The notes under the pieces were generated by a model that saw nothing but the letters and a program-made list of their open reading frames with translations, had not been told where the DNA came from and did no database searches. From positions 13,323 through 77,322 of the forward strand of contig JBBQYS010000002.1 of the NCBI GenBank assembly GCA_038208485.1: a DNA stretch of 64,000 nt, written 5' to 3'. Positions 3,378-62,520 of the stretch are shown piece after piece (within the stretch, counting starts at the first letter, position 1; each line of letters begins with the position of its first letter). Source of the stretch: Chitinophagales bacterium (lineage in GTDB: Bacteria > Bacteroidota > Bacteroidia > Chitinophagales > Chitinophagaceae). A program made the translations under genes and the position numbers.

Positions 3378-4532
3378 ATGTTTGAATCGAGCCAAATACA
3401 GTTAAGCAAAAAAGCGTTACAACATAACCTGCAATTCATAAAAAAATTACTGCATCCCGGAGTACGGTTTTGTTCTGTAGTAAAAGGAAATGCTTATGGG
3501 CATGGGCTTGTAGAGTTTGTGCGTATTGCAATGGCTGAGGGTGTCGATTATTTTGGCGTACATGCCGCAGAAGAAGCATTTACTATCAAACAACATATTT
3601 CTCCGGCCCCGGATATTTTTATCATGGGCAATGTAGATGATGAGGCTGTGAGTTGGGCAGTAAATGAAGAAGTAGAATTTGCAGTGTTTGATTTGCAGAG
3701 GCTGGAAGTTGCGCTTCATGTAGCAACATTGTTTGGTAAGCCGGCAAAAATTCATATTGAATTAGAAACTGGCATGCACCGTACAGGTTTTCCGCTGGAA
3801 CAGTTGACGGCTCTTGCAGGTATATTAAAATTGCATACAGGTAAATTTATTTTGCAGGGTCTGTTCACACATTTTGCCGGTGCAGAATCAGTGATCAATC
3901 ATTACCGGGTGATGGAACAGGAAAAAATTTACAGAGAGGCGCTATCGTTTTTTGAAGCCCGGGAATTGTTTCCTGTGTATAAACATATGGCTTGTTCTGC
4001 GGCGTTGTTGAATTATCCACATACTCAAAGCAATATGGTAAGAATAGGAATCTTACAATATGGCTTTTGGCCAAACCAGGAATCACATACACGGTTTATT
4101 GATGCTCATCATATAGACAGGGATAATTTGTTGCTTCGTGTCATCAGTTGGCAAACAAAAGTGATGGCTATCGCAAAAGTAGAAAAGGGGAAATTTATTG
4201 GATACGGGACAAGTTTCGTTGCAGATCAACACATGACTCTTGCCACTATCCCGGTAGGATATTCACATGGTTATAGCCGCAGCCTTAGCAATATTGGCTT
4301 TGTGCTTATCAATGGAAAAAAAGCAAATGTTATTGGCACTATTAATATGAACAGCCTTACCGTTGATGTTACTCATTGTGGTACTGTAGCTAAAGGAGAT
4401 GAAGTGATCCTGATAGGAAAACAAAAAAACAGGGCCATCACTGTAAATTCATTTAGTGAGCAAAGCCAGTTATTGAATTATGAAATGCTTACCAGGCTGC
4501 CGGCAGATATACCAAGAAAGGTGATCAAATAA
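3378..4532 (+). CDS. alr: alanine racemase
   Basis: PLP-lysine motif VVKGNAYGHG near the N-terminus; 384 aa two-domain layout; 6 nt after the M20D stop. Confidence 0.85.
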   Translation: MFESSQIQLSKKALQHNLQFIKKLLHPGVRFCSVVKGNAYGHGLVEFVRIAMAEGVDYFGVHAAEEAFTIKQHISPAPDIFIMGNVDDEAVSWAVNEEVEFAVFDLQRLEVALHVATLFGKPAKIHIELETGMHRTGFPLEQLTALAGILKLHTGKFILQGLFTHFAGAESVINHYRVMEQEKIYREALSFFEARELFPVYKHMACSAALLNYPHTQSNMVRIGILQYGFWPNQESHTRFIDAHHIDRDNLLLRVISWQTKVMAIAKVEKGKFIGYGTSFVADQHMTLATIPVGYSHGYSRSLSNIGFVLINGKKANVIGTINMNSLTVDVTHCGTVAKGDEVILIGKQKNRAITVNSFSEQSQLLNYEMLTRLPADIPRKVIK

Positions 4533-4622
4533 AACCCAGTAATGACAGTAGTTTAAATCTTCCAAAAAAGTGTTTATTTTTTTATTGGGAACTTTATACC
4601 TAGTCTTCATAAGGAGCATACA

Positions 4623-5693
4623 ATGGCAATATTAAAATTACATAGAGATAAACTGCACCACAATTTCACTTACCTGAAAGACCTGTTTCAAAAAAACGAT
4701 ATAGAATGGGGTGTTGTTAGCAAGTTACTTTGTGGTACCAAGCTATACATCCAGGAGCTGATCAATATGGGCATTACAGAAATGCATGATACCAGGATCA
4801 GTAATTTAAAAATGATCAAAGCACTAGGACCTCATGTGCAAACGGTGTATATAAAACCGCCGGCCCGCCGCAGCATTCCTAATGTGATCAAATATGCTGA
4901 TGTCAGTTTTAATACCAGCCTTTCTACTATCAGCCTGCTGAGTGAAGAAGCCGTACTCCAAAACAAATTACATAAGATCATCATCATGATAGAAATGGGT
5001 GATCTGCGTGAAGGAGTAATGGGAAAAGAATTAGTGGATTTTTATGGACAGGTTTTTTCTCTTCCCAATATTATGGTAGTTGGTATTGGCACCAACCTTA
5101 ATTGTCTGAATGGCATTATGCCCAATGAAGATAAACTCATTCAGCTCTGCCTGTATAAGCAACTAATAGAAGAAAAATTCAATCACCAAATTCCCTGGGT
5201 AAGTGGTGGTACAAGTGTCACTTTATCCCTTTTACTCAAAAATCATATTCCGAAAGAAGTGAACCACTTTAGAATTGGTGAAGCTTTATTTTTTGCCAAC
5301 GACCTCTTTACCGGCGAGACTTTTGAAGACATGCAATCAGGTATATTTAAGCTGGAAGCAGAGATCATAGAACTCCGGGAAAAGCCCGTAATACCTAGCG
5401 GTGAGCAGATGGAAAACGTGGCAGGTCATATACCTGAATACGATCCGGCGGATATCGATAAAACTTCTGTTCGTGCAATTATTGACGTGGGACTATTGGA
5501 TATAAATCCAACATTTCTGAGCCCGGAAGATAAAAGCTTGAAAGTAATAGAAGCCAGTAGTGATATGCTTGTAATAGACCTTGGCCAGAATGAAGGTGGC
5601 TACAAAACAGGCGGAATTATTAGTTTTGATCTGCGCTATATGGGAGCGTTGGGTTTATTAAACTCAATATATGTAGAGAAGATAATCGTATAA
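4623..5693 (+). CDS. alanine/ornithine racemase-family (fold-type III) PLP enzyme, YhfX-like
   Basis: N-terminal barrel with candidate PLP-lysine VSKLLCG; 356 aa; same strand 90 nt after alr. Confidence 0.6.
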   Translation: MAILKLHRDKLHHNFTYLKDLFQKNDIEWGVVSKLLCGTKLYIQELINMGITEMHDTRISNLKMIKALGPHVQTVYIKPPARRSIPNVIKYADVSFNTSLSTISLLSEEAVLQNKLHKIIIMIEMGDLREGVMGKELVDFYGQVFSLPNIMVVGIGTNLNCLNGIMPNEDKLIQLCLYKQLIEEKFNHQIPWVSGGTSVTLSLLLKNHIPKEVNHFRIGEALFFANDLFTGETFEDMQSGIFKLEAEIIELREKPVIPSGEQMENVAGHIPEYDPADIDKTSVRAIIDVGLLDINPTFLSPEDKSLKVIEASSDMLVIDLGQNEGGYKTGGIISFDLRYMGALGLLNSIYVEKIIV

Positions 5694-22300: not shown

Positions 22301-24463
22301 CTACCTCACCAGTTTCAGTTCATCAATGATATTCTTTGCTCCGCCGAGTTTGTCTATACACCAAAGTACATAGCGAACATCCACACAAATGGTTCTGTTC
22401 AGGTCTTTATCAAATGCAATTTTGTGACTTAGTGCTTCATAGTTACCATCAAAAGCAAGACCAATCAGGTTACCGTAGCCATCCATTACCGGGCTACCGC
22501 TGTTTCCGCCTGTGATATCATTGGTAGTGATAAAACCAACAACAAGGTCATTGCGGGTTTTATCTATGTATTGGCCAAAATCTTTTTTCTTTAGTAATTC
22601 TATTTCTTTTGCCGGCAGGTCAAATTCGTAATCCCCGGCTATATATTTTTCCAGTATGCCTTTGCTTGTAGTCACATAGTCGTACTTCACTGCATCTCTT
22701 GGTGCATAGCTTTTTACATTACCATAACTTACCCTCATGCTGAAGTTTGCATCAGGGTACATTTTTTTTGCGGCCACGGTATCCATTTCCCTGATGCCTT
22801 TCATGTACAACCTTCCCAGCTCATTATTCTTCTCAGAAAAATTATTGTAGATGGAAGCGTATTTACTGTTGTAGCTTTTCAGGAATTCTGCACCATATTG
22901 AAACGCCGGATCAGCTTGTAAGACTACTGCATCAGGATTTTTTACAAATGCATTCCATTTAGCATCATCCAGTATCATTGTTTTGGCAAAGACATCTCTT
23001 GCCCATTTTTTATAAGTAGACTCATCATTTAAAGGACCGTAGGCAGATTTTAAATTTTCATAAAAGCCAATAGGGTGTTGGCTCTTGTCTACATCCTGGT
23101 AGAACTTCATAGCAGTCATTGCCATGATCTGCTCATCACTTGGCAGGTCTTCTCCTTCCAGGAACCTTGTGCGGCGTGCATCTGCTGCATCTACAGCTTT
23201 TTTAATATCAGAGGAAGACATTCCTGGTTTCACCATTGTTGCTTCTACACTAGTAAGGTAGGCAGCAAAGGAAGCTAGCGGAGAACCGAGGATTCCTTCA
23301 TTCAGGTACTGCCGCATTTTGCTGTATGGCATCCAGGTCTCATAGTTTTTTGCGTAATCGCTAAGCACATTTGCATACTCGGGACGGGTAGCCGCCCATT
23401 TGCCGTACATTTTTTCGTAATCCTGCTTTTGCTCATACACCTTATATTTTTTTAACTGCTTGGTTTCGCCGTCAAAAAATTTCCAGTAATTCGCAATACC
23501 TGCATAACTGTTCGCCAGTTTCAATTTTACCGCCGGGTCTTTTATCATTTGTGCATACATCGCTTTCAGCCTCATGTCTCTAAGCCCAACAAGTGCAGGG
23601 TTATCTATTTCATTTTTTAGCTTAATGCCATAGCTTGTTTCATACCGATTAGTGCCGCCCGGATAGCCATAGATCATTGCATAGCTACCATCACTCACAC
23701 CTTTTAGGCTCACTGGTAAAAAATATTTTGGTTTTAGCGGAACGTTTGAAGCGCTATAATCTGCAGGGTTGCCATCTTTATCAGCATATACACGGAATAC
23801 AGAAAAATCCCCGGTATGACGTGGCCACTCCCAGTTGTCAGTATCGCCACCAAACTTGCCTATACTTTCCGGCGGAGCGCCCACCAGCCTGATGTCCCTG
23901 TATGTTTTGTATACATACATGATATATTGGTTTCCTTTAAACATGCTGTAAATTCTTCCTGCAACAGCTTTGTCTTTATTCATCACACGATCGGTAATGG
24001 TTTTGTAGACGTCACTTAATTTTTTTGTTCTGTCTTCGTAGTTCAATCCTTTTACGGCTGCTTCTACTTCATCAGTTACGTCTACAATCTTTTCCAGGAA
24101 CTGTACAGTAAGGTCACTTTTTATTTCCTGGTCTTTATTGAAGGCATAAAAACCATCCCGCAGGTAATTGTTCTGAATAGAACTTGCGCTTGCTATAGCA
24201 CCATATCCACAATGGTGGTTGGTAAAAATAAGACCCTGAGAGCTTACGATCTCGCCCGTGCAACCACCTGCAAAAATGATGATGGCATCTTTGATAGATG
24301 CATTGTTTACGGAGTAAAGTTGTTCCTTACTCAATTTAAGTCCTTTTTTCACCATGTCGTTGTAGACTTGCTGCCCAAGGATCATTGGCAGCCACATGCC
24401 TTCATCAGCACGGGTTTGTAGCACCGAGGCAAAAAGTACAAGCGCTAAGATTAATTTTTTCAT
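22301..24463 (-). CDS. S46 family dipeptidyl-peptidase (DPP7/DPP11 type)
   Basis: Signal peptide then DEGMWLP; catalytic contexts TNHHCG and GGNSGSPV; 720 aa. Confidence 0.9.
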   Translation of the reverse strand: MKKLILALVLFASVLQTRADEGMWLPMILGQQVYNDMVKKGLKLSKEQLYSVNNASIKDAIIIFAGGCTGEIVSSQGLIFTNHHCGYGAIASASSIQNNYLRDGFYAFNKDQEIKSDLTVQFLEKIVDVTDEVEAAVKGLNYEDRTKKLSDVYKTITDRVMNKDKAVAGRIYSMFKGNQYIMYVYKTYRDIRLVGAPPESIGKFGGDTDNWEWPRHTGDFSVFRVYADKDGNPADYSASNVPLKPKYFLPVSLKGVSDGSYAMIYGYPGGTNRYETSYGIKLKNEIDNPALVGLRDMRLKAMYAQMIKDPAVKLKLANSYAGIANYWKFFDGETKQLKKYKVYEQKQDYEKMYGKWAATRPEYANVLSDYAKNYETWMPYSKMRQYLNEGILGSPLASFAAYLTSVEATMVKPGMSSSDIKKAVDAADARRTRFLEGEDLPSDEQIMAMTAMKFYQDVDKSQHPIGFYENLKSAYGPLNDESTYKKWARDVFAKTMILDDAKWNAFVKNPDAVVLQADPAFQYGAEFLKSYNSKYASIYNNFSEKNNELGRLYMKGIREMDTVAAKKMYPDANFSMRVSYGNVKSYAPRDAVKYDYVTTSKGILEKYIAGDYEFDLPAKEIELLKKKDFGQYIDKTRNDLVVGFITTNDITGGNSGSPVMDGYGNLIGLAFDGNYEALSHKIAFDKDLNRTICVDVRYVLWCIDKLGGAKNIIDELKLVR

Positions 24464-24728
24464 GTTGTTTTGTTTGGAATTTGCAGTAAAATATTCTGTT
24501 TTGAAAAGAATGTTTCTTTGTGAATAAATGGCTTTTTAAGAAGATCGAAAATAATTAAATGTTTATTATCGTTTGGCTTAAAGATAATATGTTTTATACA
24601 GAGCAAATTTTAGACCCAGGTTTTTTTCTACGTTTTTTGTATATGATTTCTTGGCGTGGTTTGTTTCTGTCAGCCTAACAACCCTGATCAATTAATAAAT
24701 GTATGGTTTAGATGGTTTGGACAAAATC

Positions 24729-24815
24729 GAACTGTCATCCTGAGCCTCCGCTAAAGCGAGATAAATATCGAAGGCGGTCTTTTTTCCTTAAACTAGTTTC
24801 GACGAACAATTGAAC
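24729..24815. repeat. hairpin repeat copy E0 (long B-type left arm, degenerate right arm)
   Basis: GAACTGTCATCCTGAGCCTCCGCTAAAGCGAGATAAATATCGAAGGCGGTC ... GTTTCGACGAACAATTGAAC. Confidence 0.8.
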
Positions 24816-24849
24816 TTCATCCCAAAAATGGAAGAGTCAATCAATCAAG

Positions 24850-24925
24850 CTGTCAGCCTGAGCTTGTCGAAGGCGGTCCATTTTATTTCACTTACCCGGT
24901 TTCGACAAGCTCAACCTGACAACCC
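24850..24925. repeat. hairpin repeat copy E1 (complete A-type)
   Basis: CTGTCAGCCTGAGCTTGTCGAAGGCGGTCC - loop - ACCCGGTTTCGACAAGCTCAACCTGACAACCC. The 20-bp stem carries a 2-nt internal mismatch. Confidence 0.9.
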
Positions 24926-24985
24926 TAAAAATTTTAAAGAATAAATTCCAATATTGCTTTTTTAATATCAATGAACAAAAAAATT

Positions 24986-25017
24986 GAACTGTCAGCCTGA
25001 GCTTGTCGAAGGCGGTC
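24986..25017. repeat. hairpin repeat copy E2 (left arm only, followed by the GIY-YIG gene)
   Basis: GAACTGTCAGCCTGAGCTTGTCGAAGGCGGTC. No loop or right arm follows. Confidence 0.85.
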
Positions 25018-25030
25018 ATTCAATTTGAAA

Positions 25031-25348
25031 TTATTTCTTTTCATCACCTTCCTTTGGAAACTGGGTATAGTTTTTCGAATGTTGCTTTAGCTGTTCCCAA
25101 TCCGAATTTATTAATGCCTCTTTTTTCTTTCTAGACCAACCTTTAATTTGCTTTTCAAGTGAGATAGCTTGCATTACCTCGTGTAGTTGTTGACTATAAA
25201 CCAGTTGAACTGGTAGCCTTTTAGCGGTGTAACATTTCCTGTCATAAGCAGAGTTGTGTTGTAAAATTCTTGATTCTAAATTATTAGTGATACCCGTATA
25301 ATATGAGTTATCAGAACACAAAAGGATGTAGACATAGTATGATTTCAA
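25031..25348 (-). CDS. GIY-YIG nuclease family protein (small URI-domain protein)
   Basis: YYVYILLCSDNSYYTGITNNLESRILQHN plus KQIKGWSRKKK are the GIY-YIG hallmarks. A TTG at 25348 gives MKSYYVYIL. The track ORF extends to a GTG at 25417, inside a degenerate repeat arm. Confidence 0.8.
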   Translation of the reverse strand: MKSYYVYILLCSDNSYYTGITNNLESRILQHNSAYDRKCYTAKRLPVQLVYSQQLHEVMQAISLEKQIKGWSRKKKEALINSDWEQLKQHSKNYTQFPKEGDEKK

Positions 25349-25464
25349 AGTAAAATATTTTAGCGTTGATAAATATATTTCTTCTTTTTGACAACACAAT
25401 GAGCTTGTGGAAAGCACCCTAAAAATTTTAAATATTCTTCAAAAAAGGAATGAATCAAAATTTT

Positions 25465-25537
25465 AACTGTCAGCCTGAGCCTGTCGAAGGCGGTCCCTTT
25501 TCTTCTTCACCCGGTTTCAACAAGCTCAACCTGACAC
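25465..25537. repeat. hairpin repeat copy E3 (complete A-type)
   Basis: AACTGTCAGCCTGAGCCTGTCGAAGGCGGTCCC - loop - ACCCGGTTTCAACAAGCTCAACCTGACAC. Confidence 0.9.
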
Positions 25538-25599
25538 ACTTACAATTTTTAAAAAAAGTATATCAATATTGCTTTTTTAATATCAATGAACAAAAAATC

Positions 25600-25696
25600 G
25601 AACTGTCAGCCTGAGCTTGTCGAAGGCGGTCCCTTTTCTTCTTCACCCGGTTTCGACCACTCGTCTCGCTTTAGCGGAAGCTAAACCTGACAACCC
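25600..25696. repeat. hairpin repeat copy E4 (A-type left arm, long B-type right arm)
   Basis: GAACTGTCAGCCTGAGCTTGTCGAAGGCGGTCCC ... GGTTTCGACCACTCGTCTCGCTTTAGCGGAAGCTAAACCTGACAACCC. Confidence 0.85.
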
Positions 25697-25728: not shown

Positions 25729-25758
25729 CAAAAAAACCGGCAACTTTCGCTGCCGGTT
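25729..25758 (-). terminator. rho-independent terminator of the glycine-zipper lipoprotein gene
   Basis: Minus strand reads AACCGGCAGCGAAAGTTGCCGGTTTTTTT. Confidence 0.8.
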
Positions 25759-25829: not shown

Positions 25830-26372
25830 TTATTGTAATTCTATTCTTCCACTTTTTTTATCCTTAGAACGTCCAAGAATATATCCGCCTGCTGCGCCTA
25901 CAACGCCACCTATTACTGCACCTTTTGCATTCTTACCAATTACGGCTCCTGCTATGGCGCCACCTATACCACCTATGGCTGCTCCTTTTGCGGCATCGCT
26001 AATTCCTGTCTTTTTCTTTTCTACCGGTGCTTCTGGTATGGCTACCGGCTCATTTGCTGCTACGTCTGTGCCAGTGCTAACTGGTGCTGGTGCTACTGGT
26101 GCTGCTGTTTCTTCTTGCTGTACAACTGGTGCTGCTTTTTTAACCCTTCTTGGAGCAGGAGCTTGTACATATCTGTCTACATAAACTACCTGTGGTCTTT
26201 GTGGAGCTACTGCTTCAGGAGCCGGAGCTGCTACGTCTGTGCTGGCGTTTGATTGTTGCAGATTTACAGTATCTGTCATTACTATTGCACGTGTTGTTGT
26301 CGTATCGTCTTTTTTCGTGTTGCAGGCTATTAAGAACATTGCGGCAACTATTGGGAGTATAAATTTTTTCAT
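25830..26372 (-). CDS. glycine-zipper lipoprotein with Ala/Pro-rich linker
   Basis: Lipoprotein signal MKKFILPIVAAMFLIAC at the internal ATG 26372; AP-rich spacer; C-terminal GAAIGGIGGAIAGAVIG...GGVVGAAGGYILG. Confidence 0.7.
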   Translation of the reverse strand: MKKFILPIVAAMFLIACNTKKDDTTTTRAIVMTDTVNLQQSNASTDVAAPAPEAVAPQRPQVVYVDRYVQAPAPRRVKKAAPVVQQEETAAPVAPAPVSTGTDVAANEPVAIPEAPVEKKKTGISDAAKGAAIGGIGGAIAGAVIGKNAKGAVIGGVVGAAGGYILGRSKDKKSGRIELQ

Positions 26373-26580
26373 GACTTTTGTTTTTAGTTTTACAAAGTGT
26401 GTGTACAATATAATAGATGCTGAAGGGCTTGCTTTGTTTAAATACAATAAGTGATAGTTGTGTTAATGCTCCACTTCCTAAATACAAATGAACAGAAAGG
26501 ATTAAAGCGGATAAATAGAAAAGAAGAAATACCTTAGTAGATAATAATCAAATAAACAATCTACAATAAATAATAAGCTG

Positions 26581-61620: not shown

Positions 61621-62520
61621 ATGGAAGCTAGCAGGGAAACATGGTTTTTATTATTATCTGTACCGCTATATATTGTTTTAATAGGGGTGGAAATAGTAAT
61701 GAGCAACTGGCAGGCAAGAAAACTCTATTCTTTTAAAGCAGTCATTCAAAACATATACCTCAGCCTTGCCAATGGCTCCATTGATCTTTTACTCCGCTGG
61801 GCATTTTATGTAAGTGTACTCATGTGGTGCTACGCACACAGGATCTTTGTTGTAGAAAATGTATATGCTTACTGGCTCCTGCTTTTCTTCCTGGAAGACC
61901 TTGCGTTTTATATAGAGCATCGGGTTGATCATTATTCCCGCATTTTCTGGGCTGTACATGTAACACACCATTCTTCTGAAGAATTTAACCTCACCACCGG
62001 GTTTCGTTCCTCAGTTTTTCAGCCCGTTTATCGGTTCATTTATTTTATTCCTATTGCTTTAATGGGTTTTCATCCCCTGGATATTGTGTTTATGTACAGC
62101 ATCACCCAAACTTATGGCATACTGGTACATACCCAATACATCAATAAAATGCCTCGGTGGTTCGAGGCTGTTTTTGTGAGCCCAAGCCATCACCGGGTAC
62201 ATCACGCCAGCAATATTTTGTACCTGGATAAGAACATGGGTATGTGCCTGATCATTTGGGACAAAATGTTTGGCACCTTCCAGGAGGAGCTTCCCGAAGA
62301 GCCGGTAAAATATGGATTGACCAAAAGCCTGGACAAACCATTCCACCCGACACAGATCGTTTTTCATGAGTGGAAAGCCCTTTCAGCAGACATGAAGAAA
62401 AAGTTACCACTTTCTACCAAGCTCAAATACATATTTAATGCCCCGGGCTGGAGCCACGATGGCAGTACCAAAACTGCAAAAGAACTCCGGGAAGAAATCT
62501 CTGTTTCCGCAACTGTGTAA
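61621..62520 (+). CDS. fatty acid hydroxylase / sterol desaturase superfamily membrane protein
   Basis: Histidine boxes HRVDH, HVTHHSS and HHRVHH. Confidence 0.8.
   Translation: MEASRETWFLLLSVPLYIVLIGVEIVMSNWQARKLYSFKAVIQNIYLSLANGSIDLLLRWAFYVSVLMWCYAHRIFVVENVYAYWLLLFFLEDLAFYIEHRVDHYSRIFWAVHVTHHSSEEFNLTTGFRSSVFQPVYRFIYFIPIALMGFHPLDIVFMYSITQTYGILVHTQYINKMPRWFEAVFVSPSHHRVHHASNILYLDKNMGMCLIIWDKMFGTFQEELPEEPVKYGLTKSLDKPFHPTQIVFHEWKALSADMKKKLPLSTKLKYIFNAPGWSHDGSTKTAKELREEISVSATV

Follow-up and report, generated by a model that had tools for sequence, protein, structure and literature searches.

A 1366-nucleotide (nt) intergenic region in the 64,000-nt stretch analysed here (the window; contig JBBQYS010000002.1 of a Chitinophagales bacterium) contains a gene for a small GIY-YIG protein, P0001, amid a cluster of hairpin repeats. 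By analogy with the Ssn nucleases published in 2025, the locus probably represents an Ssn-type pair of nuclease and hairpin repeat, in which P0001 would be a stand-alone GIY-YIG nuclease and its cognate element a 26-nt unit of the form TGTCA-nnC-TGAGCYTGTCGAA-Gnn. The cluster has the same build as the Ssn systems and belongs to their kind as a distinct variant. An earlier note on this DNA had proposed that the nuclease is tied to the hairpins as REP-associated transposases (RAYTs) are tied to repetitive extragenic palindromic (REP) sequences. This proposal is supported by the enrichment of the unit around homologous genes, by an orthologous site found with and without the gene, and by the precedent of Ssn and its Neisseria repeat, NTS (PMC11893778).

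Ssn proteins (CDD cd10448) have 94 residues and a single GIY-YIG domain, and a hairpin repeat lies on each side of their genes (PMC11893778). The Neisseria repeat, NTS, has the sequence CGTCATTCCCGCGMAVGCGGGAATCYRG; its consensus is widespread outside Neisseria, and the broader repeat class was named SRM (Chenal et al., Nat Commun 2025, PMC11893778). SsnA of Neisseria meningitidis binds the hairpin solely as single-stranded DNA and on one strand only, cuts a few nt upstream (5') of the GTCA-led hairpin, and is inactive on both duplex DNA and RNA. The authors likened the NTS-ssnA-NTS arrangement to insertion sequences (IS200/IS605) and to REP/RAYT systems (PMC11893778). In six NTS-flanked ssn genes that we recovered from viral-collection contigs, the GTCA-led unit lies ∼10–20 nt before the ATG and an inverted unit lies at most ∼20 nt past the stop codon.

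The open reading frame (ORF) in the window matches the GIY-YIG family Pfam PF01541 (E=8e-18; residues 27–99 of a 128-residue ORF). The 105-residue product that begins at a TTG codon is identical to the called protein P0001, and the 128-residue ORF with a GTG start is probably not the real product. P0001 retains all residues that are invariant in the family alignment, including Y7, Y17, R27 and E65, and its AlphaFold2 model consists of one domain with the GIY-YIG fold (predicted local distance difference test score, pLDDT, of 88). The protein was recorded solely on the window's own contig. No second GIY-YIG gene was found within the 64-kb window, and no NCBIfam model matched P0001.

The relationship between the gene and the unit was analysed in 80 genome loci that encode homologues, 65 of which are complete. 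They come mostly from Bacteroidota (Chitinophagaceae, Flavobacteriaceae, Weeksellaceae, Sphingobacteriaceae and Cytophagales), together with a few metagenome-assembled genomes labelled Ignavibacteria, Nitrospinaceae and Nitrospirae. The sequence logo of the units yielded the 26-nt consensus given above. Unit density, computed on 81 sequences (the 80 loci and the window), was 9.3 per kb at up to 100 nt from the gene versus 0.02–0.03 per kb beyond 3 kb, an enrichment of more than 300-fold; other intergenic regions of the same 10-kb loci were not enriched. An upstream unit was present in 43 of the 65 complete loci, an inverted downstream unit in 53, and both in 38. The upstream unit, TGTCA-nnn-TGAGCYTGTCGAA-n'n'n', has its core end at a median of 25 nt before the start codon. 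The downstream unit, nnn-TTCGACARGCTCA-n'n'n'-TGACA, nearly always follows or overlaps the stop codon, its core starting at a median of 6 nt past it, and the C-terminal tails PSTSSG, FDSAQPDN and LRQAQGDN seen in many homologues are the translated downstream unit. The association of paralogous genes with the repeats, which the earlier note had put forward as a check, is borne out by these densities and by the loci flanked on both sides. Gene-less two-arm hairpins, whose two cores are a median of 31 nt apart, are also arrayed in tandem around the gene, and some loci, such as L007, have the same spacer on both sides of the gene, so that direct duplications recur elsewhere. A homologue on a Sphingomonas plasmid, 54% identical, is flanked by the same kind of unit; the unit class is therefore not confined to Bacteroidota. 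Protein P0067, which occurs on many contigs, was considered as a case of one protein in multiple genomic contexts and was rejected: all of its places are the same locus.

The structure of the unit was analysed on 88 distinct units. A conserved 11-nt loop is enclosed by four base pairs, and 94.6% of the stem cells pair, compared with 64% in shuffled controls (0 of 500 shuffles reached the observed value) and 34–49% with slid partners. Changes on both sides were seen in 117 stem cells against 32 expected, and the outer two pairs use UA, GC, CG and AU freely. Compensatory changes maintain the 4-bp stem of the unit. In none of 77 short two-arm hairpins do both arms carry an identical variable stem triplet, which accounts for the conserved mismatches in the long hairpins of the window (GCC/GGC in left arms and GGT/ACC in right arms). 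Pairing between arms was considered as the selected structure and was ruled out, because the triplets of the two arms are never identical and each arm's own stem covaries. The conserved structure is therefore the local stem of each arm. Of 322 units, 200 fold better on the strand that leads with TGTCA and 67 on the complementary strand (p=1e-13), a slight and consistent difference; a possible explanation is that the loop ends (GA versus AG) form tandem G.A pairs on the TGTCA-leading strand alone.

Protein subfamilies and unit subtypes covary. A CxNx(2-4)H tail at the C-terminus of the homologue is found with a 14-nt core, TGAGCGRAGTCGAA, at 20 loci to 0, and homologues that lack the tail are found with a 13-nt core at 39 loci to 2 (Fisher p=4e-14 for the association of tail and core). 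Both pairs are present within Flavobacterium and within Chryseobacterium, which argues for specific recognition rather than shared ancestry of the host DNA. The presence of at least two orthogonal protein/unit pairs in one genus also provides ready-made specificity pairs. No site-specific nucleases other than Ssn proteins are known to cut single-stranded DNA alone, and Ssn proteins are under development as tools.

A filled and an empty version of the site were found in near-identical strains. The intergenic region of the window lies between genes for an S46 peptidase (22301–24463, minus strand) and a Gly-zipper lipoprotein (25830–26447, minus strand). The best matches of the window's peptidase indicate a Ferruginibacter-like member of the Chitinophagaceae. 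Contig L220, from another sample (Logan SRR3471615), encodes a peptidase that is 100% identical, and its flanks are 99.25% and 99.59% identical to those of the window. Its intergenic region measures 513 nt and contains a single hairpin, in which the outer left and outer right arms of the window are joined by a 12-nt loop; the 852 nt between positions 24780 and 25631 of the window, including the gene, are absent, and the junction falls within the repeated TCGAAGGCGGTC. The missing block holds the gene and 2.5 hairpins. Starting from the left, it comprises a pseudo right arm, hairpin E1 and the E2 arm, then the GIY-YIG gene, and beyond it the decayed unit, E3 and the left arm of E4. Both outer arms share a nested-palindrome subtype that is missing from the inner arms, and from this we infer that they were once partners of one hairpin, before the block came to lie between them. 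Over 3.5 kb of aligned flanks the two alleles differ at 16 positions, 4 of them at the contig end. Six of the remaining 12 differences fall within ∼75 nt at the two junction units, and the 946 nt that extend rightwards from 25654 are free of any, a clustering that resembles co-conversion during recombination between units. In relatives whose S46 peptidases are 93%, 80% and 79% identical, the same neighbour genes lie 130–280 nt apart, with no unit and no GIY-YIG gene between them. The gene block thus comes or goes as a whole within a hairpin that predates it, at the level of strains, and orthologous sites with and without the gene, for which the earlier note had suggested looking, do exist. Among all fetched loci nothing closer than ∼65–70% identity was found as a donor of the 852-nt block, and this was for the coding part only. 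The filled/empty strain pair makes both mobility and REP-like spread of the repeat experimentally approachable, where they had been published before only as a hypothesis.

Several observations weigh against an Ssn-type pairing. In a reverse analysis, metagenome contigs were scanned for the exact unit, and the 102 units flanked by 600 nt or more on both sides were assessed. Two or three of these had a homologous gene within 0.5–1.5 kb, a weak outcome for this test, and 97% lay away from any such GIY-YIG gene. Within the window, the 63 kb outside the cluster contain no dispersed units (a unit-like match at 62412–62425 was rejected as chance, having neither TGACA nor a stem). The published SRM search pattern, HGTCWYN(0-2)YYVSBRHN(0-5)WNVSBRGN(0-2)RNCYNB, finds a test NTS but gave 0 matches in the window, the 80 loci and three alphaproteobacterial plasmid loci. 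By sequence, P0001 is 31–38% identical to six NTS-flanked Ssn homologues (36–54 bits) and 31–36% identical to UPF0213 proteins (48–63 bits); in an unrooted BLAST comparison, which assigns the protein to neither clade, the family averages 56.5 bits to UPF0213 (YazA, YhbQ) versus 48.6 bits to NTS-flanked Ssn. The nearest solved folds are likewise those of UPF0213 (1ZG2 and 1YWL, with E=2.4e-18 and E=2.4e-15 in a profile search of the PDB), which are also the top Foldseek hits, followed by Slx1. The UPF0213 genes are not flanked by repeats in the four cases examined (yazA, a Listeria homologue, a yhbQ-type Klebsiella gene and a Salinivibrio homologue). The copy in the window has an intact downstream unit (24990–25013) but lacks a canonical upstream one. 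Its expression and autonomy are therefore uncertain, since the upstream unit is decayed and of the wrong polarity and the start codon is TTG. Finally, the 852-nt difference could be an insertion in the window or a deletion in L220.

The outcome of the reverse analysis fits a situation in which many dispersed repeats are served by few genes. A relaxed scan of the same metagenome contigs (33–65% GC) yielded 266 units, of which 46% are solo and most others lie in two-arm hairpins. The units are thus also a dispersed repeat: where the gene occurs units occur as well, whereas a unit is no sign of a gene close by, as is the case for NTS with SsnA and for REP with RAYT.

If P0001 acts as SsnA does (PMC11893778), it would bind its unit solely in single-stranded DNA, for example during replication, conjugation or transformation; binding would be limited to the folded TGTCA-leading strand, and the nick would fall just 5' of the hairpin, at a distance of a few nt. 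The covarying stem and the folding advantage of that strand lend indirect support to cutting confined to one strand of single-stranded DNA. Units broken in this way might then be repaired by recombination with one another, again by analogy with SsnA, and such recombination could give rise to local duplicates of hairpins and, through gene conversion of a homing-like type, bring copies of the gene block into further units. A more far-reaching reading, which we consider possible but doubtful, is that the gene and its units belong to a type of autonomous mobile element for which prokaryotes have so far provided no demonstrated example. Such an element would nick its own dispersed single-stranded hairpin units; break-induced gene conversion would then carry it, along with hairpin derivatives that lack the gene, into units, the window and L220 representing a filled and an unfilled site. 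If true, this would amount to homing into a multi-copy structured repeat.

Four other explanations were weighed, all of which are less well supported than the Ssn-type pairing. A classical free-standing homing endonuclease would introduce double-strand breaks into duplex hairpin DNA at gene-less sites and be copied by repair, with the hairpins as mere target. The GIY-YIG fold is a known homing-endonuclease fold, the presence/absence polymorphism lies exactly inside a hairpin, and the differences clustered at the junctions look like co-conversion tracts. We nevertheless regard this explanation as improbable: the single domain of 105 residues comes without the separate DNA-binding domain on which I-TevI and Seg enzymes depend, the covarying stem points to recognition of folded single-stranded rather than duplex DNA, and characterised relatives with this gene layout leave double-stranded DNA untouched. 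Moreover, paralogous loci in Chryseobacterium and Elizabethkingia apparently share their upstream gene, as judged by inspection, which argues against frequent movement. It is still less probable that the gene is passive cargo, that is, that the hairpins resemble REP sequences or miniature inverted-repeat transposable elements (MITEs) and owe their spread to a different enzyme or to recombination alone, with GIY-YIG genes accumulating in repeat-rich hotspots. The great majority of exact metagenome units without a nearby GIY-YIG gene would agree with such a scenario, and local tandem duplication alone could build the 165-nt repeats of the window. Against it stand the strong enrichment at one gene family, not matched in other intergenic regions of the same loci, the fixed positions of the units before the start codon and at the stop codon, and the match of protein subfamily to unit subtype inside the same genera.

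An action of the arms in RNA, as elements of the 5' and 3' untranslated regions that would pair with each other and so serve the stability, termination or autoregulation of the nuclease mRNA, appears very unlikely. The units do occupy the positions expected of untranslated-region elements, and the long hairpins are very stable. However, inspection of the window revealed no T-run after the arms, there is no match to an Rfam family, most units lie far from any such gene, the 77 short hairpins point to a conserved local stem rather than to arm-to-arm pairing, and SsnA does not bind RNA. The remaining explanation, an assembly artefact or chance repeat in which the gene-less allele of L220 stems from a collapsed assembly, is one to which we give almost no credence. 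Short-read assemblies can break or collapse at repeats, but the two alleles share just 12–16 nt at the junction, and the k-mer used in Logan assembly is longer than this overlap; L220 furthermore has substitutions of its own at the junction, and the same architecture is seen in 80 independent genomes.

The hairpin elements, the GIY-YIG gene and two direct repeats of ∼180 nt (∼90% identical) all lie within positions 24667–25692. From left to right the order is collapsed unit, outer left arm, E1, E2 arm, GIY-YIG gene, decayed arm, E3, E4 left arm and outer right arm. The cluster of hairpins and arms, the gene and the direct repeats are present much as the earlier note had described them, with small corrections. 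The direct repeats align at 90% mean column identity over 24839–25031 and 25456–25645, and their identical 34-mer occurs exactly at 24949 and 25564, where none is expected. The 27-nt arm CTGTCAGCCTGAGCTTGTCGAAGGCGG has four matches with up to three mismatches (24850, 24989, 25467 and 25603; none expected from 100 shuffles) and no match outside the cluster across the 64-kb window. The outer arms are 83% complementary and lie at a distance of 902 nt, and it is they that form the element enclosing the gene, not the single repeat element E2 to which this role had been assigned. Nor does the gene take the place of a loop and right arm of E2, as had been thought, since the family layout is upstream unit, gene and inverted downstream unit. 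The degenerate arm at 25391–25417 and the spacer that follows it are real, but the arm is not a hairpin partner of the E2 arm: it has the same polarity as the latter and no flanking stem or TGTCA. It also has the wrong polarity for an upstream partner. Its spacer, ACCCTAAAAATTTTAAA, occurs 3' of both the E1 right arm and the decayed arm. As single-stranded DNA, E1 is predicted to fold strongly (−22.3 kcal/mol, z=−7.6) and E3 less so (−12.8 kcal/mol, z=−3.2). A search of Rfam at gathering and permissive thresholds returned no family, with just sub-threshold noise on the hairpins.

Table 1. Features of the intergenic hairpin cluster, in positions of the window
Feature	Position	Strand	Description
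Collapsed unit	24667–24684	+	CTGTCAGCCTAACAACCC; left-arm start fused to right-arm end at a CCTGA microhomology; present in the window and L220 alleles
Outer left arm (E0-L)	24733–24779	+	TGTCA-TCC-TGAGC[CTCCGCTAAAGCGAGATAAATA]TCGAA-GGC-GGTC; nested-palindrome core subtype; 83% complementary to 25664–25692
852-nt block missing from L220	24780–25631	.	edges ambiguous within repeated TCGAAGGCGGTC (24768–24779, 25620–25631)
Direct repeat, copy A	24850–25017	+	E1, spacer with exact 34-mer at 24949–24982, E2 unit
Hairpin E1	24851–24921	+	left unit TGTCA-GCC-TGAGCTTGTCGAA-GGC (24851–24874), 23-nt loop, right unit GGT-TTCGACAAGCTCA-ACC-TGACA (24898–24921)
E2 arm	24990–25017	+	unit part 24990–25013; on the gene strand GCC-TTCGACAAGCTCA-GGC-TGACA, beginning 13 nt past the stop codon
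Single-domain GIY-YIG nuclease gene	25031–25348	-	105 residues; TTG start 25348–25346, stop 25033–25031
Decayed unit	25391–25432	+	core 25400–25412, TGAGCTTGTGGAA; then spacer ACCCTAAAAATTTTAAA
Direct repeat, copy B	25467–25631	+	E3, spacer with 34-mer at 25564–25597, E4 left arm 25604–25631 (unit 25604–25627)
Hairpin E3	25468–25536	+	left unit 25468–25491, right unit 25513–25536
Outer right arm (E4-R)	25649–25692	+	GGT-TTCGA[CCACTCGTCTCGCTTTAGCGGAA]GCTAA-ACC-TGACA; partner of 24733–24779
Terminator-like stem	25730–25756	-	CCGGCA/TGCCGG then T-run; just downstream of the Gly-zipper lipoprotein gene, by inspection

Some details of the cluster deserve separate mention. The collapsed unit, CTGTCAGCCTAACAACCC, resembles a hairpin element that was shrunk by deletion between the CCTGA microhomologies of its own two arms. 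An extra nested palindrome, CTCCGCTAAAGCGAG, lies inside the 13-nt core of both outer arms (24745–24766 and 25658–25679). The units that flank a homologue on a Methylobacterium plasmid (L089, 2300–3000) have a similarly enlarged core, so that enlarged-core units recur across phyla. The loops of E3 and E4, CCTTTTCTTCTTC (25500–25512 and 25634–25646), resemble the last codons of the GIY-YIG gene as read on the plus strand, TTTCTTTTCATCACC (25031–25050). The gene-less hairpins E3 and E4 might accordingly be internal-deletion derivatives, for which this low-complexity stretch is weak evidence. The terminator-like stretch is conserved in the orthologous locus L216 (85% over 34 nt) and marks the conserved edge of the intergenic region.

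Other features were seen in the homologous loci. Half-unit micro-expansions, (CTGTCGAAGTC)n and (GTGCTGAGCTTGAC)n, occur in L008 (∼5325–5440), L006 (1–140), the flanks of L018 and L078, and L288 (5892–6161), and a tandem array of eight units with a 73-nt period is found among these loci; they suggest slippage or repeated breakage at units. In L081–L087, which belong to one uncultured lineage, the GIY-YIG gene together with ∼460 nt upstream and ∼730 nt downstream (∼3542–5038 in all) lies between genes with the Pfam domains CT_A_B and LamB_YcsF, typical of pxpC and pxpA, respectively; we take the surroundings to be a pxpBCA-type operon, with an apparent insertion. Two GIY-YIG paralogues lie 2–3 kb apart in L001 (3192–3517 and 4994–5338; one copy is apparently frameshifted) and in L023 (4995–5297 and 7566–7898). 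In three groups of Weeksellaceae paralogues (L039/L045/L051/L061/L079, L020/L036/L038/L042 and L017/L019/L040) the same upstream gene is apparently present across species and genera, as judged by inspection. If so, the Weeksellaceae copies would have been inherited vertically over a long time, and would resemble domesticated RAYTs more than active transposons.

The system resembles Ssn in several respects. The protein is a single-domain GIY-YIG protein of ∼95–105 residues whose catalytic Tyr/Tyr/Glu correspond to those of SsnA (Y7, Y17 and E65 versus Y6, Y17 and E64); an oriented, GTCA-led hairpin lies ∼10–25 nt before the start codon, with an inverted copy right past the stop; more copies of the repeat are clustered nearby and probably dispersed elsewhere; and protein and repeat variants go together. 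Exact NTS repeats and NTS-flanked ssn genes were also observed in IMG/VR 'viral' contigs of high-GC bacteria (L092, L142, L163, L165, L178 and L198). The unit described here differs from NTS in having a 4-bp covarying stem and a conserved 11-nt loop, whereas NTS has a 7–8-bp GC stem and a 3-nt loop, and in often forming two-arm long hairpins. A further difference is that strains here differ by gain or loss of the gene block within a hairpin, an event that the published work treats only as a hypothesis (PMC11893778).

UPF0213 proteins (E. coli YhbQ and B. subtilis YazA; PDB 1ZG2 and 1YWL) and Slx1-like domains are the closest solved structures, with similar sequence scores. The four UPF0213 genes are packed between or overlap their neighbours, two of them in the order trmNF-yazA-rsmI, and leave no room for units; the gene described here, in contrast, is solitary in a repeat cluster that is absent from the near-identical strain L220.

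With REP sequences and their two-arm forms (REPINs), bacterial interspersed mosaic elements (BIMEs) and RAYTs the locus shares a single small nuclease gene between inverted copies of a short, structured and oriented repeat. This repeat also occurs as REPIN-like two-arm hairpins, both in clusters and dispersed, and the positions of the gene are stable across species. The two differ in the fold of the enzyme, which is GIY-YIG here and an HUH/Y1 (IS200/IS605-type) transposase in RAYTs, and in the repeat, which combines a conserved loop with a variable stem here and has a conserved stem in REP; moreover, several paralogous gene/unit pairs are found per genus here. Free-standing GIY-YIG homing endonucleases (the Seg and I-TevI family) have the nuclease fold in common with P0001, and the presence/absence polymorphism with clustered flank differences is a further likeness. 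In contrast to these enzymes, there is no DNA-binding domain, no intron (no Rfam intron family) and no phage context here, and the target is a multi-copy structured repeat. Insertion sequences and MITEs are similar in their inverted arms, but no transposase domain is present here, and by inspection no direct duplication that could represent a target-site duplication flanks E1, E3 or the 852-nt block. Literature searches for the unit motif strings, for GIY-YIG with REP, and for YhbQ returned nothing relevant.

Taken together, these comparisons place P0001 and its homologues in a large, mostly Bacteroidota branch of stand-alone GIY-YIG proteins that lies between Ssn and UPF0213 in sequence and is associated with a different hairpin design, in which a short covarying stem encloses a conserved 11-nt loop and which the published search pattern misses.

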